Below, piece after piece: positions 3,001 through 9,000 of a DNA stretch of 24,754 bases; the stretch's first letter is position 1; each line of letters opens with the position of its first letter. Source of the stretch: Deinococcaceae bacterium (lineage in GTDB: Bacteria; Deinococcota; Deinococci; Deinococcales; Trueperaceae); the NCBI GenBank assembly GCA_040256005.1, contig JBDZWC010000034.1:1-24754 (forward strand), read 5' to 3'. The position numbers were made by a program.

Positions 3001-6000
3001 GCATGAGCAGGCCGTTCAAGATCGCGAGCAGCGAGAGGATGGCGCCAGACAGCCTCCGCGCGTCAGCCGGCTCGAGCCGCTTGTAGACCGGCACGAACGA
3101 GTTGACCAGGGCCCCCTCCGCCAGCAGCTCGCGGAACAGGTTGGGCACCTTGAACGCGGTCACGAAGGCGTCGACGACCGGTGTAGGGAAGAACTGGGCG
3201 AGGAGCGAGTTGCGCACCAGCCCGGTCACACGGCTCGCCAGCGTGCCGCCCATCAGGGTGAACGCCCCGCGCCGCGACGAGGCCGCCGCCGGAGCGCTGC
3301 GCGGTTTCGCCTCCCCGGGCGCGTCCACGGCAGCCATGTTCGCACGCTGCGCGGTATCATCGTCCCGCTAGCACGCCGCCCCACCGCGGAAGGAGCCGCC
3401 ATGGAGACCACGGTCACCGCCAACTTCGAACATCCGTCGGCCGCCGAGGACGCCGCGTCCGCACTGGTGAGCGCTGGCATCCCGCAGTCCGACGTCCTCG
3501 TGTTCCCTGGTGACTCCGACGAGGTGCTGCGTGCCCGGCGGCTGGCTTCCCCCAACCACATCCATCGCACGATCGTCCCGCCAGACGTGGGCGCCGCCAT
3601 GGGCTTCACCGCTGGCTTCCTGGGCGGGGGCTTCTTCGGCCTCCTGCTCGGCTCCGGCGTGTTGAACGTCATGGGCAAGGGGCCCGCCATGGCCATCGGG
3701 CCGTTCTGGTCATCGGTCATAGGCGCGGTGGCGCTCGGGCTCGCCGGCGCCCTGGCCGGCTACATCTTCAACGCGCCGCTGCCCGTCCTCGACCCGGTCC
3801 ATGAGACCGCCCCCCAGCCGCGGCTCACCGTCGTCACCGCGACCCTGCCCGCGGAGCGCGCCCAGGCGGCCCTCGATGCCTTGGGCAGCAAGAGGCCGCG
3901 CGACGTCACGGTCTGGCGCCGTGACGAGGGAGGTTGGGTACCGGCCTAGGTCGGTAGTTCGTGGTTTCGCCGCGTCAGGCACGCGCACCGCGAGGAACCT
4001 AGGGCACCTGCCCCAGGCACCTCAAGATTCACATCAAGAATACAGAGTTCTCACCTTACTAGTGATAGCTTTCACTAGGTAGCTTCATAGGGCAGTTGTG
4101 GTCCCTGCTACCTGAGCGAATTTCGACCCCGCGTCCGCGTAAGACGGGCCGGGGGGAGAGGACCCAGCAAGACCGGCTCCTAAAGGACGTGGGTAATACC
4201 ACATCCGTTCAGGTGGACCGTCAAACGGTGGCCTTTCTTACGAGGCAGACGGTTCTACCGGTCATAAGATCGCCGGGCAAATCCAAGGGGAGGCGCAGTT
4301 CTCCTCAGCGACGTTGAAGCCAGTCCCGCAATTTGGGCGCCTGGGACGGGCCGAGTCAGTGGCGCAACCGGCTGACGAGAGCGGTGCTCCTTAGCAAGCC
4401 CCTCTCGAAGTACTTGAGGCGGCGTGCACAGCACGCCGGAAAGAGAGAGGGGCAAGTTGAAGCACGATCCTCGCCAGGGCCACGTTCGCTTTGGCATCCA
4501 GCGGATCCGTTCGCTGCCGCGTTTCCAGCTAGTTTCCATCATCGGTCTCGTCGCGCTGCTCGTCAGCGCCTGCGCCACGCCTGACGGGGCCGCCAGCCGA
4601 GTCCCAACCATCATGCAGGCCATGGAGGCCGAAGAAGCCGTCATCGAAGGCTCGGTGCTCGCCGTGCGCGACACCCCGGGCACCTCCGGTGGCCAGGTCG
4701 TCGTCTCCACCGCCGCCGTCTCGCCGGCGAACGAAGGGGGCGAGGACGCCTCCCTCCCCTTCGAGGTGAGCGCCGAGGGCGAGTACGTCCTGTGGGCGCG
4801 CATCAAGGGCGCCTCCAGCGACGAGAGCGCCATGTTCCTCGGCTTCGACGGCAAGGTCGAACGCGTCGAGCTCTTCCGCTTCGGCGAGTTCGTCTGGGTC
4901 GCCGCGTCCGTCGGCCAGCTCGAGTCCGGCGAGCACGCGATCTCGATCGCGCACGCCGAACCCGAGACCGAGCTCGACGCGCTCGTCATCTCCTCACGGC
5001 GCGACCTCACCCACGACAACCTCGAGACCTTCCTCATGACCGGCGAGATGCCAGCCCCCGTGATGCCCGAGCCCAGTGATCCGGCCACCGGCGGCCCGGC
5101 CACCGGCGAACCGGACGGCGGCGCCGGCCCGAAGGCGCCCGTCGGCTCGACCGCCTACGACCTCAGGGGCGACCCGAACTTCGATCCCAACGACCTCCCC
5201 GCCGAAGCCCAGGTCTGGTACCGCAGGCTGTGGAAGGCCATCGACGACTCGGTCTACGACGCGTACGAATGGGCCGCGAGCGACGACCTCTACCGCTACG
5301 CCCGCGACCTTCACACCCACGTTCAGTTCCTCCTCCATGCGTTCCGCGTGACCGGCGACCTCCGCCTGCTCGACGAGGTCGACAAGATCGTCGAGATCAT
5401 GCGCGATCAGCTCCACGACTCGTGGCGCGGCGTCCTCTCGGGCTCGACTGCCCCCGGCAAGGACGGCTTCGTGAACTGGGTGTGGCGCTACAGCAGCGGC
5501 GACGAGTACGTGGGCAAGGACACCAACAAGCTCGACGAGATGAAGACCCACGCCCTCATCGCCAGCGTCGCCTACGCGCTCGACGTCAACCGCGACCTCC
5601 CTAGCCCCGGCGGCGTGAACTACGGCGCCCACGCCGACTTCTGGGTCGACTACCTGGTCAACGACTTCGAGGCCAAGTGGCGCCAGCGCGAGGGCGAGCC
5701 CAAGGGCTTCCCCATCATGATCCGCTCCGGTACGCACACGTACTACTCCTGGATGAAGTGGCACTACTACATGGCGCTGCTCACCGGCAACGACGGCTAC
5801 ATGCGGGAAGCCGAGCGCATGGCCGGCAAGCTCCACGAGGACGTGAAGGAGGTGAGCACCTCCAGCGGCACCGCGCTCCTGTGGCCCAAAGGCGTGCTCT
5901 CCGAAGGCAGCAGCCTGAACTACCTTCACCCCACCGTCTACGCGCGCTACGCCTTCCACGACGCCATCGAGTTCAACCTCGAGGGGTTCGGCTGGTGGGA

Positions 6001-9000
6001 CGACGAGACGCTGGAGCAGATGGCGCGCACCATCACCACCTGGGTCATCGATCCCGAGGGCGCCGAGGGCAGCCGCGACTGGTTCGCCGGCGACATCGGC
6101 GGCGACAAGGACCGCGCGGGCTTCCCCACCGACGGTTGGGCGCGCATGAACTACCTGCGCTACGAGGTCAGCTCCTACCCCGAGCTGGTCATCTACGACG
6201 ACAGCGGCAAGATCGACGACATCAACCAGCGCGTTATGGACAAGTTCGGTGACTACACCGATCCGCGGTACATCGCGTTCCCCACGGCAGAGCTGATGAA
6301 GGCGATACTCGACCGCTGACCCAGTCCCCGCAGTACGACCTGAGTACGAAGGGCGCGGCTGCACCGCGCCCTTCGTTCGCTGTGACTCCGGCAGTGGCTC
6401 GGGGACGCCCCTGCGTCTAGACTGGGCTACCCCGGCGGACACTTCACCGAACCGGTCGAAGTGCGGGACGACCGCCACACCGACCATGGACGAGCCGTTC
6501 TTCACAGTCATCATCCCCACCTACCGGCGTCCCGCCCTCCTCGTCAGGGCGCTGCAGAGCGTGGCCGCGCAGACGTTCGCAGGGGCGCAGGTGATCGTCG
6601 TGGACGACGCCGGCGACACGGAGACGCAGGACATCGTCGCCAGTTTCCCCGGGTTCGAGTACCTGGTCAACGACAACTCCAGGGGCGGCTCCGGAGCCCG
6701 CAACGCAGGCATCGCTCGCGCGACCGGACGCTGGGTCGCGTTCCTCGATGACGACGACCTGTGGCTCCCCCACAAGCTGGCTGCCGTCCGGGACCTGATC
6801 GCGGAGAGCACCAGTGAGCTCGGGCTCGTGTACAGCGCGGCCGAGCATTTCGACTCGGAGGAGAAGACGCCCATCATGAACACCCGCCCCTACGCCAGGG
6901 GCGAGGTACTCGACCAGGTGCTGTACCGCAACGTGATCGGCGGCATGTCGGTGGCCGTGGTCAGGCGTGACCTCCTGGAGAGGATCGGCGGGTTCGACGA
7001 GCGCTTCCCCGCCATGCAGGACGCCGAGCTCTACGTCCGCCTGGCGCAGATCTGCACGTTCGACTTCGTCGACCAGGTCCTCGTCAGGATCAGGTCTGCC
7101 CGCCACGCCCGTATCACGCACGACGTCGCCAAGAAGCTCCAGGCGTCCAAGCTCTTCGCCGAGAAGTACGCCAACCTCCTGGAGCAGCGGCCGCGACTGC
7201 GCCACAGGACGGCGGCGCGCACGCTCATCTTCGCCTCGGCCGCGCGGGACGCCAGGACGATCCTCGCGAACCTCCCGTGGACGTTGGCCGGCGTGCTCGT
7301 CGATCCGGGCAACGTCCCGTACGTGGTCCGGAGCCTCGTGGCCATCGCGAAGCAGGTCCCGGCGGGCCGCGCCAGGAAGGCCGGCGCCCTGCCGTGACGA
7401 TGGGCCTCACATGGCTCAGGCCGGCATGACCGACCCAGTTGGCGCCAGCGCCCGGCTGTCATGACCACAGGCAAGTACCCTGCCACTTTCACGGGGTTGA
7501 CGAGAGCGTCTTCGACGACGTTGGTCGATCGGGCCCTGGCGGCCTCGGTGGCGCTGTTCATCACCTCGGCCATGCTCCTCAGCGAGACGGCGTTCTCGCG
7601 CGTCCCGCACGTCATCGTCCTGTTCCTGTTCGCGGTCCTGCTCGTCAAGAGCTCGCAGCAGCCGCTGCGGCTGCGACTCGACGCGACGCTCGCGGCCGGC
7701 GGCTTGTTCGTCATCTACGGGCTGAGCAGCGTGCTGTGGTCGGTCAACCAGGGCGGCGCCCTGGCGAGCAGCATCAGCCTGGCGTTCGACTTCGCGGGCG
7801 CGGTGCTCGTCTGGGTGGCGCTGCAGAACGGCGTGTCGCTGAAGCTCGTCGCCTGGAGCGCCGTGGCCGCCGCCACCGTGCAGGGCATCATCGGTCTGAA
7901 CCAGAGCTTCGTGATGGGGCTGGACCGCGCCGAGGGGCTCACGGGCAACGCCAACGCCCTGGCGATCCAGCTATCGCTGGCGGCGTTCTTGATACTGCTG
8001 GCCGAGCCTCGCAAGTGGTGGTCCAACCTACTGGCCGTGGCGCTCATCGTCGTGGCGACCCTCACCACCGGGACACGCAAGCTGGTGTTCGTCTGGTTCG
8101 CGTACGTGCTGCTGTTGCTGCGCAGCCTCTTCCCGCTGTTCAGGCGCCCGTCAGTGGGCGCGGCGCTGGTGCTCCTGCTCGCCCCGGTGGCGATCTGGGT
8201 CTCGCTGACGTACGGGCCCGTCCTGGGCTTCGGCGAGGCTTTCGAGGACGTCACGTTCTTCCAGCGCGTGGGCGACACCGTCACCGAGGGCAAGGCGACG
8301 GGCGTGCGCTCCGCGATGATCGCCGACGCCCTCGAGGTCTGGTGGCGCGAGCCGGCGTTCGGCCACGGCATCAACCAGTACCGCCACGTCGGCTCGTTCA
8401 CCACGTACTCCCACAACAACTACGTGGAGCTGCTGGCCAACTTCGGGGTCGTGGGCACGCTGTTCTTCTACGCGCTCTACGCCGTCATCGGCTACCGCGC
8501 CATCGTCGGCATCATCGCCGGGCGGCAGTACGCCTGGGTCATCATGGCCACCCTCGTCGTCTTCCTGCTGATGGACGTGGCGCGTGTTTCGTACACCGAC
8601 AGGTTCACCTGGATCCACCTGCTCGTCCTGGGCCTGGTCGCTACCGGCGAGGTGGGCCGACCCGAACCAGAGCCAGGGTGAGCGCCCCGCCTGTCCCGGC
8701 GGACCGGCCACGCAGGCTGGTCGTCTTCATGGCCGACGTCATGGGGGGCGGCGCCGAGCGGATGACCGTGGCGATAGCCAACGGCATGGCGGAGCGCGGC
8801 ATGGTCGTCGAGCTGGTGCTGGCGGCGGCCAAGGGACCCTACCTGTCCGAGGTCGCGATGTCTGTCCAGCTCGTGGACCTGGGCGTGGGCGCGGTGAGCG
8901 GAGCGGTGCTGCCCCTGGCGCGCCACCTGCGGCGGTCCCGGCCGGACGTGCTGCTGACGACCCTGCCCCACACGAACGTGGTCGCCGTCGCTGCCGCCCG

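Follow-up and report, generated by a model that had tools for sequence, protein, structure and literature searches.

A probable family-wide c-di-GMP-II riboswitch regulon of cell-surface genes in Trueperaceae, with predicted translational OFF control of a lipoprotein in a polysaccharide locus

Which genes do c-di-GMP-II riboswitches govern in Trueperaceae, a family of radiation-resistant bacteria, and does the ligand turn them on or off? We examined this in the genome of a Deinococcaceae bacterium (GTDB Trueperaceae, assembly GCA_040256005.1), starting from a window of 24,754 nucleotides (contig JBDZWC010000034.1, positions 1 to 24,754) in which one such riboswitch precedes a lipoprotein gene. 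The occurrence of RF01786 in Deinococcus was already known (PMC9495176), and our literature searches found no description of c-di-GMP-II targets in Trueperaceae. The riboswitch class is a known one, while the family-wide regulon is probably undescribed and its switching logic probably new.

A genome-wide Rfam scan found four copies of RF01786, on the window contig (C186) and on C4, C14 and C226, where the first-pass annotation had placed them with 65-76 bits; the window copy (4298-4382, + strand, model positions 1-84) scored 68.9 bits, where the gathering score is 53.5, and the other three scored 65.5-76.2 bits. No fifth copy was found with a profile trained on the family copies (next match, E 1.5), nor was a c-di-GMP-I riboswitch found in the genome, which is 96.8% complete. 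The elements of the window aptamer are as follows:

4298..4382, + strand: c-di-GMP-II aptamer RF01786 (covariance-model alignment, contact bases)
4298..4308, + strand: P1 5′ strand (RF01786 alignment; kept in orthologs)
4372..4382, + strand: P1 3′ strand, which doubles as anti-anti-Shine-Dalgarno (alignment, homolog leaders)

The P1-P3 helices and the pseudoknot strands are present in the RF01786 alignment, for which column conservation was taken over 225 aptamers. The class, with structure 3Q3Z, was reportedly studied in Lee 2010 and Smith 2011. With contact numbering taken from PMC13715770 and transferred to the window by offset, the equivalents of A61, A69, A70 and G73 are retained at 4358, 4366, 4367 and 4370, and they are kept in all four copies of the genome. 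At the A13 position the window copy has a C (4309) and the other three an A; this position is not invariant across the family (A in 162/187, C in 14/187). The first two pairs of P2 in the window copy are G-C, then A-U. Two pairs covary in the family, G15-C59 (178 GC, 6 AU) and U-A69 (170 UA, 14 CG). A G at position 69, as in the c-di-GMP-II-GAG variant (RF03169), occurs in 14/187 family aptamers and in all 16 loci read from family f2; since all four copies of the present genome have an A there, their identity as RF03169 was rejected. The genome encodes c-di-GMP enzymes (12 GGDEF matches, 8 HD-GYP-like and 6 EAL-like motifs), and the signal was therefore taken as present; the aptamer sequences suggest that c-di-GMP is the ligand.

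Each of the four copies is followed by a same-strand ORF with a hydrophobic stretch and a lipobox (LVSAC, ITAC, GTAC and AAAC), so that the earlier claim of a lipoprotein gene directly behind every copy held in 4/4 cases by a pattern test. The same annotation had placed two copies in exopolysaccharide loci, one before a GH26 gene and one before a partial gene; accordingly, the C186 and C4 loci are of the Wzy polysaccharide type, the C14 target is a GH26 protein (PF02156, 52.8 bits for a cut-off of 20.2; 4/4 relatives tested also match) and the C226 target is cut at the contig end. Among other genomes of the family, 88/100 carry RF01786, in 30/36 genera and with at most 22 copies per genome, which is consistent with the previous figures of 51/61 genomes and up to 22 copies; the family matches number 442. 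Tandem riboswitches account for 39 pairs among 225 aptamers.

We then went through almost all copies in 22 genomes, 133 units in total. Start codons and lipoboxes were called by purpose-written pattern scripts rather than SignalP or Prodigal, and target genes with a GC-adjusted model, since a hexamer model fitted to this genome gave wrong targets in relatives of low GC. A lipobox gene is led by 83/133 units by script (about 90 by eye; 79/129 without the present genome), against a background, in the same test, of 109/2762 genes of the genome, 59/755 genes with a long upstream gap and 1/18 genes led by TPP or cobalamin riboswitches. The c-di-AMP riboswitch, not found in 12 genomes, could not provide a further control. 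The enrichment previously seen at the best locus per genome (20/29 versus 103/2596) hence persists across whole regulons. The signal-peptide pattern was unspecific (855/2762 background genes), so the secreted class was assigned by family clustering instead: about 21 of the 133 units stand before genes for secreted, non-lipidated proteins that resemble donor-strand pilins. In about 11 units the led gene encodes a GGDEF protein, a response regulator, a sigma factor or a small cytoplasmic protein. Among the GH26 orthologs behind a riboswitch, some carry a normal signal peptide that lacks a lipobox, and a riboswitch lies upstream of only 4 of the 109 lipoproteins in the genome. What had been called a c-di-GMP regulon of surface lipoproteins is therefore conserved and dominated by lipoproteins, but lipidation is not its defining trait: it is a cell-surface regulon, for which "lipoprotein regulon" is too narrow a name. 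In a reverse look-up, the best GH26 homolog was riboswitch-led in 29/30 loci across genera, and the link between riboswitch and surface gene extends past Trueperaceae to the other sampled families of the phylum.

Pfam families were assigned for 97/175 called targets. By annotation, the lipoprotein targets include GH26, GH99, GH114, PL9-like beta-helix, G8/CEMIP and S8 proteins and an unnamed (alpha/alpha)6-barrel family; judged by sequence, they look largely glycan-active or protease-like. In 12 GH26 loci read over ±1.5 kb, the usual neighbours were tgt and a glucose/sorbosone dehydrogenase, with one SLT match.

The pilin-like targets were modelled in relatives. The family models as an Ig-like pilin (pLDDT 94.8) whose residues 1-14 have no secondary structure and form an unpaired N-terminal segment. 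The modelled fold may be related to the pilins of chaperone-usher pili (CFA/I, Csu) and to TasA; the top matches were TLP-1b, FimG, CfaB, TasA and Csu, at a Z of just 5-7.4 and a Foldseek E of 2e-3, with no Pfam match for the family and an empty PDB sequence search. A secreted protein of 240-290 aa comes next after the pilin in 7 of the 14 regions fetched and resembles WxLIP of the WxL/WxLIP systems (E 3.5e-4), with no PapD match. In 6/14 regions there is a partner of 817-1037 aa, not found in the present genome, with no usher-profile match and a weak porin match in one case; it is a putative counterpart of the usher in chaperone-usher systems.

In the window, the riboswitch-led gene lies within a polysaccharide locus:

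1769-3337: MurJ-like flippase, a context gene of the polysaccharide locus
4457..6319, + strand: riboswitch-led lipoprotein gene, 620 aa (lipobox, structure model, domain comparison)
6346..6376, + strand: 13-bp hairpin past the stop codon, a possible terminator (sequence and fold; no clear U-tract; absent from the terminator scan)
6486..9820, + strand: GT2, Wzy_C polymerase/ligase and GT4 genes separating two barrel paralogs (annotation)
9849..11243, - strand: convergent barrel-only lipoprotein paralog without riboswitch (38% identical over 430 columns; no Rfam match)
11425..24754, strand not assigned: rest of the polysaccharide locus, with UDP-sugar dehydrogenase, epimerases, GT4/GT2, ABC exporter and Polysacc_synt_2 (annotation)

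The open-frame GTG at 4424 was rejected as gene start, the Shine-Dalgarno (SD) region at 4445-4453 and the homolog leaders favouring TTG 4457. The protein consists of a signal peptide, the lipobox Cys39 (4571-4573), a CBM35/CBM6-like module (about residues 53-180), a Pro-rich linker and an (alpha/alpha)6 barrel (about 242-620), and its structure model has a pLDDT of 93.2. The N-terminal module matches CBM35/6 (E 1e-6 to 1e-5; structural Z 12-14), and the barrel is nearest to GH105 (Z 17.8, 284 aligned, rmsd 4.2), followed by putative and GH76 hydrolases (Z 16.6-15.1), at an identity to these fold matches, which include epimerases, of at most 11%. Since no Pfam family matches at E 0.001, membership in GH105 or GH76 by sequence profile was rejected; NCBIfam gave nothing near a cut-off, and Atlas neighbours annotated as GH76 or GH47 scored only 0.83-0.85. 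The window protein thus has its fold in common with GH105, GH76 and GH8 barrel enzymes with CBM35/CBM6, but differs from them in the low identity and the lack of a Pfam family, and the fold is also found in other GH families and epimerases. It is part of a distinct family with 103 or more members; the consensus drawn from 103 homologs contains LLLxAC, and conserved acids (D301, D306, D355, E405 and D581) are candidate catalytic residues. The protein may be a hydrolase. In riboswitch-led homolog loci, a glycosyltransferase or sugar transferase gene is found within 1.5 kb in 8/12 cases.

The direction of control was addressed by folding of the leader:

4376..4407, + strand: predicted anti-sequestor hairpin of the ligand-free state, in which the P1 3′ strand pairs with the anti-SD (helix 4376-4388/4397-4407; -15.0 kcal/mol, z -2.5)
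4384..4465, + strand: predicted sequestor hairpin of the ligand-bound state, spanning both SD and start codon (-42.3 kcal/mol, z -5.7)
4398..4406, + strand: anti-Shine-Dalgarno (anti-SD) (folding, homolog leaders)
4445..4453, + strand: SD region ahead of TTG 4457 (sequence, homolog leaders)

None of 200 shuffles was as stable as the window sequestor hairpin, and the median cost of opening the RBS was 15.4 kcal/mol in 53 high-GC leaders versus 9.0 in 300 control genes. Pairing of the anti-SD is stronger with the P1 3′ strand of its own leader than with other P1 3′ strands (-7.3 versus -5.6 kcal/mol, n=64, p=0.001), a preference not seen in the same test for the P1 5′ strand or the core. Among 33 distinct homolog leaders, the SD hairpin is present in 29 and the alternative P1 3′ pairing in 26, the sequences changing together. 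Because the anti-SD can pair with either the RBS or the P1 3′ strand (26/33), expression is predicted to be OFF at high c-di-GMP.

When the bound and alternative folds of 100 long leaders were compared, 25 were called OFF, 1 ON and 63 flat, and 11 were skipped; the window leader was OFF (15.0 versus 10.8). Arm-swapped controls gave 43 OFF and 18 ON of 267 (p=0.009), although the swapped arms themselves lean OFF (16% versus 7%) and, the leader loci being related to each other, this p-value and the one above overstate. The 63/89 scored long leaders with no directional call include 20/24 scored GH26 leaders and the C14 copy. Seven short leaders predict ON, and the ON predictions include pilin-like genes and C226; three scored short S8-protease leaders, in which the SD adjoins P1 or is partly within it, are OFF. 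In equilibrium folding of the window leader the SD is paired in both folded states, which are not separated, so the OFF model requires co-transcriptional kinetics. The terminator scan found no terminator-like site between aptamer and start; a transcription-terminator mechanism was not supported, and from the models control looks translational. The scan found no sigma-70 promoter. In one compost metatranscriptome, contigs of another organism had a depth of 699 over a related aptamer (8 differences) and 32 downstream; as contig depth cannot rank parts, these were left out of the evidence.

In summary, we think it fairly probable that the class II switches of Trueperaceae exert a family-wide, mostly translational control of cell-surface genes, with the window locus of the OFF type. 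The targets would be chiefly lipid-anchored modular proteins, glycan-active-looking or proteolytic, together with a donor-strand pilin-like operon. Without ligand, the P1 3′ strand of the nascent RNA would take the anti-SD, leaving the SD free and the CBM-barrel lipoprotein translated; with c-di-GMP, P1 would be locked, and the anti-SD would pair with the SD and hide the start codon. At low c-di-GMP, the CBM-barrel enzyme may then trim or release the polysaccharide of the surrounding Wzy locus.

The aptamer is that of the known c-di-GMP-II class, above the gathering score and with the main contacts kept, whereas the copy number per genome, the tandem pairs and a platform predicted to act by sequestering the RBS instead of through a terminator or intron set the present system apart. 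In C. difficile, too, genes for surface proteins and a pilin stand behind class II switches, and the protease PPEP-1 is regulated in the opposite sense to adhesins (PMC6200980, PMC11477304, PMC6366702). There, however, class II is mostly transcriptional and ON (all four switches, PMC6200980), OFF control needs class I and the targets are sortase-anchored, whereas the present genome, with no class I found, appears to have one class wired both ways at translation, and lipid-anchored, glycan-active-looking targets.

A broader reading, which we put forward tentatively, is that across Deinococcota a single riboswitch class switches lifestyle in both directions by acting on translation. A set of lipid-anchored glycan hydrolases, lyases and proteases, among them an undescribed family of CBM-(alpha/alpha)6-barrel glycanases within Wzy loci, would be shut OFF by a three-helix platform, and a P1 register-slip platform would turn ON Ig-domain lipoproteins and a donor-strand pilus not yet described. 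When c-di-GMP is high, fibres would then be made and the matrix left intact; when it is low, the cell would come free, and class I would be unneeded.

The same regulon might instead be uniformly ON, c-di-GMP raising every target and the enzymes building or maturing the matrix, as PelA, BcsZ and PslG-type enzymes help to do. The C. difficile precedent, the seven short ON leaders, the position of the enzyme genes inside synthesis loci and a conserved P1 extension (4285-4297 with 4383-4392) that could loosen the sequestor foot would fit this, but we consider it unlikely, given a single ON call against 25 OFF in 89 long leaders, the mutual exclusion of P1 and anti-sequestor in 26/33 homolog leaders and the three OFF S8-protease leaders.

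It is improbable, in our view, that the regulon answers a different signal, with another cyclic dinucleotide such as 3′,3′-cGAMP, or several, as the true ligand. Class II aptamers do accept other cyclic dinucleotides (PMC13715770, PMC11477304), 3′,3′-cGAMP being bound at 11 nM by a class II-derived aptamer. Replacement of A14-U60 by G-C, which alters isomer preference (PMC13715770), is seen in the window copy as well as in 80/187 family aptamers, besides the G at position 69 in some. Against this, the four copies keep all of A61, A69, A70 and G73, and GGDEF genes are among the family targets. Loss of the GHxxGD Asp marks cGAMP-making GGDEFs, and this residue is kept in 7/7 readable GGDEF domains. 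We likewise give little credence to the view that the lipoprotein bias mostly reflects inheritance and shuffling, a promoter-riboswitch-signal-peptide-Ig module having been copied onto few families, with some links no longer switching. Four clusters do make up 100/175 called targets, the largest chained via shared N-terminal domains, several targets are frameshifted and 63 leaders fold flat; yet the lipoprotein targets form at least nine multi-member clusters unrelated to each other, besides singletons, pairs covary in both aptamer and leaders, and the link is preserved in nearly all GH26 loci read.

The reading that we favour is a cell-surface regulon with OFF control at the window locus. In the literature that we found, the class II switches characterised so far are ON; a natural platform of the OFF type, and two polarities arising from one aptamer, would, if true, widen the class and provide components for synthetic biology. 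The regulon further draws attention to a putative glycan-active enzyme family, as yet unnamed and with more than 100 proteins, together with its likely substrate locus, and the pilus-like system may be testable in culturable relatives. As the outputs of c-di-GMP are little described in Deinococcota, the riboswitches supply a list of targets and allow direct tests of how attachment and dispersal are controlled in this phylum.

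We found four copies of the c-di-GMP-II riboswitch (RF01786) in this genome, on contigs C186 (the window), C4, C14 and C226; a fifth copy was not found in the genome with a family-trained profile, nor was a class I c-di-GMP element. In all four cases an ORF encoding a lipobox lies downstream on the same strand, in agreement with the first-pass annotation, which had placed all four before predicted lipoprotein genes. The window holds the following elements:

4298-4382, c-di-GMP-II riboswitch RF01786 (Rfam, 68.9 bits, full length; sole Rfam match in the window)
4457, TTG, most likely start of the window gene (4457-6319, + strand), 74 bases past the aptamer; product of 620 aa

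The window protein has the lipobox LVSAC with Cys39, and its close relatives carry the Trueperaceae label. As had been claimed, two copies sit in exopolysaccharide loci, with glycosyltransferases and Wzy_C in both C186 and C4, and one, on C14, leads a GH26 gene, with tgt on one side and a glucose/sorbosone dehydrogenase, seen in relatives, on the other. The C226 target is indeed partial, being cut off at the contig end, and shows a weak Ig-like match (E 0.023). The whole of contig C4 (locus L273 of this genome, G000) is at about 60% GC versus 69% for the genome, which suggests an acquired polysaccharide locus bringing its own riboswitch-led lipoprotein.

Of 100 other genomes in the family, 88 have the riboswitch, consistent with the wide occurrence reported earlier (51 of 61), as do 58/68, 23/42 and 6/6 genomes of three other families in a phylum sample. 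To replace the reading of only the best locus per genome, all matches were fetched for 21 relatives from 20 genera, picked mostly for having several copies; DNA was obtained for 147 of the 148 matches, giving, with this genome, 152 aptamers, or 133 units (a riboswitch, tandems merged, and the gene it leads). With this bias removed, 83 of the 133 units still lead lipobox genes by script, 31 lead genes with a loose signal-peptide pattern, 13 show neither and six have no call, tallies that are counts rather than significance tests because kin are not independent. Inspection by eye of the last 19 units (those 13 and six) added one pilin-like gene and seven lipoproteins, of which three are broken or lack a clear start. 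Lipoprotein targets occur in 20 of the 21 relatives. For comparison, the lipobox test was positive for 109 of 2762 genes of this genome, for 59 of the 755 that have a long gap upstream and for 1 of 18 TPP- or cobalamin-led genes. Since most of the latter encode secreted binding proteins, export by itself is not special to c-di-GMP-II targets. For the best GH26 homolog, 29 of 30 loci have the riboswitch, the lone miss being a second paralog within a riboswitch-bearing locus. Loci of window-protein homologs divide into 18 with a riboswitch, 9 without, mostly barrel-only like the window paralog at 9849-11243, and 3 at contig ends. In summary, the family-wide regulon is real and robust.

The proposed regulon of surface lipoproteins therefore stands as to the link, but "lipoproteins only" is too narrow, as it also includes unlipidated secreted pilin-like proteins and about 11 units leading GGDEF, response-regulator, sigma-factor, glycosyltransferase or small cytoplasmic genes. 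The 175 called targets fall into 15 clusters and 37 singletons. A Pfam scan covering 97 of them gave hits that include a GH26 cluster (28 targets, 25 genomes), an S8 protease cluster (17 targets), GH99 (5), PL9-like or other beta-helix (7), GH115_C modules (4), G8/CEMIP (2) and GH114 (1), with Ig/PKD domains common. Riboswitches stand ahead of GGDEF, TPR-GGDEF, response-regulator and sigma-70 genes at L058, L142, L161 and L052, a possible feedback or cascade. In three genomes, one of which has two copies, a riboswitch leads the gene for a conserved protein of some 90 aa that lacks a signal peptide (motif TLYRCYW; no Pfam match; L083/L088, L139, L153), and ORFs for secreted peptides of 35-57 aa immediately follow riboswitches at L125, L068, L162 and L193. 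Targets in f2, another sampled Deinococcota family, include an unnamed conserved protein of 130-190 aa and a single-Ig lipoprotein of 130 aa (L188, L194, L178; L177, L179, L184, L192). Divergent riboswitch-lipoprotein units stand back to back at L025 and L027, about 600 bases apart. The DUF5060 secreted or membrane protein at 91-1743 (+) in the window has DUF5060/apiosidase-like relatives that are riboswitch targets in other genomes (L092, L133).

The pilin-like proteins, a second target class of 145-200 aa, number 22 in 12 family genomes, with four more in f3, a further family. A model built from 149 sequences (pLDDT 94.8) matched best, in a middling range, donor-strand fibre subunits (TLP-1b, Z 7.4; FimG, 6.3; CfaE-CfaB, 6.0; TasA, 5.8), and the nearest named Atlas clusters were SCPU (on 14% of members) and WxL. 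Downstream lie a WxLIP-like secreted protein in 7 of 14 regions and a protein of 817-1037 aa in 6 of 14; the operon looks like a chaperone-assisted pilus with a putative usher. At L199-L210, and also in f3, between one and three pilin-like genes, of which some have a riboswitch of their own, accompany the WxLIP-like gene and the 817-1037 aa partner, which is convergent in some genomes. This system was not found in the present genome.

We then considered the ligand. The class II aptamer contacts c-di-GMP through A69, A70 and G73 (PMC13715770); the equivalents of these and of A61, a contact assigned by numbering offset from the same source, are conserved in all four copies. At the A13 position the window copy carries C, and A14-U60 is replaced there by G-C. 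The genome has 12 GGDEF matches, with GHxxGD kept in 7/7 of the readable ones, and 8 HD-GYP-like and 6 EAL-like motifs. As a class II-derived aptamer also binds 3',3'-cGAMP (PMC13715770), c-di-GMP is the likely rather than the proven ligand. A G69 ("GAG") aptamer with a covarying loop U-to-C change occurs in 16/16 f2 loci read (L175, L177-L179, L182-L184, L188, L190-L195, L197, L198) versus 0/22 aptamers of f3 and f4 and 14/187 of this family, and may be a base-pair swap rather than an altered ligand. Tandem aptamer pairs number 39, mostly 35-155 bases apart (L006-L019, L039-L042 and others); 16 lead GH26 genes and the rest include pilin-like or S8 genes.

The window protein matches no Pfam family and has 103 homologs. 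Its model (pLDDT 93.2) shows a CBM35/CBM6-like module and an (alpha/alpha)6 barrel nearest to GH105 (Z 17.8, 284 aligned, rmsd 4.2), then GH76 and GH8, with at most 11% identity throughout. Of 12 riboswitch-led homolog loci, eight contain a gene for a glycosyl- or sugar-transferase no more than 1.5 kb away; this is absent from two, and in the remaining two no neighbour was called. Fold and context together make it probably a glycanase acting on the local polysaccharide. It and its paralog at 9849-11243 (-), with 38% identity, are convergent barrel lipoproteins bracketing GT2-Wzy-GT4, the riboswitch preceding 4457-6319 (+) only; several relatives also have such a convergent pair, with 5-8 kb between the two. 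An AMP-binding (CoA-ligase-like) gene at 14875-16299 (+) lies within the polysaccharide locus and also adjoins the homolog at L225. The riboswitch-barrel unit occurs outside Deinococcota as well, since a Pyrinomonadaceae genome (L328) has a riboswitch-led homolog with the same three-helix leader.

No terminator was found in the window leader. Two elements are predicted instead:

4384-4465, hairpin covering the Shine-Dalgarno sequence (SD) and start codon (-42.3 kcal/mol, z -5.7)
4398-4406, anti-SD able to pair with the 3' strand of the basal aptamer helix P1 (-15.0 kcal/mol, z -2.5), incompatible with P1

Ligand binding would thus stabilize P1, release the anti-SD and block translation, making this an OFF switch. 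The SD hairpin is found in 29, and the alternative pairing in 26, of 33 distinct homolog leaders, and the three pairing strands co-vary across several sequence types. Family-wide, the median cost of opening the ribosome binding site is 15.4 kcal/mol (53 high-GC leaders) versus 9.0 (300 control genes), and anti-SDs pair preferentially with the P1 3' strand of the same leader (n=64, p=0.001). Constrained folding of 100 long leaders gave 25 OFF, 1 ON, 63 flat and 11 skipped; since controls with swapped aptamer arms also yield OFF (43 OFF, 18 ON of 267), this signal is partly generic. Against the OFF model, the window SD is paired in both states at equilibrium, so that the model requires co-transcriptional kinetics, and the GH26 leaders, often tandem, gave no direction. 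The 23 short leaders gave 7 ON, 7 OFF, 3 flat and 6 skipped, as a whole no different from swapped controls (p=0.30). The predicted-ON cases, in which a register slip would let the P1 5' strand pair over the SD without P1, lead four pilin-like genes, three of them major, two lipoproteins with Ig domains (C226 and its homolog) and one with pentapeptide repeats; the eight scored pilin-cluster short leaders were 3 ON, 2 OFF and 3 flat. In this genome, C186 and C4 are computed as OFF, C14 as flat and C226 as ON. We predict an OFF platform acting on translation, possibly matched by an ON counterpart.

Class II riboswitches were already known from clostridia and Deinococcus (PMC9495176). The four class II switches of C. 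difficile, which control adhesins, a signalling system and a pilin, are ON, in contrast to the predicted OFF of the window leader, and class I switches the protease PPEP-1 OFF (PMC6200980, PMC11477304, PMC6366702). A c-di-GMP riboswitch over surface proteins is thus not a new theme. The accessible text of PMC11219805 mentions D. radiodurans c-di-GMP enzymes and no riboswitch. The literature searched, with few subscription papers covered, held no description of the Trueperaceae or Deinococcota targets, an OFF class II platform or this pilus. These genes may be listed in the supplements of Lee 2010 and Smith 2011. The aptamer is known, and the family-wide surface regulon is undescribed in the literature searched. 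As the switch would be translational and a hairpin lies at 6346-6376, this suggests that control is confined to the lipoprotein gene, sparing the synthesis genes.
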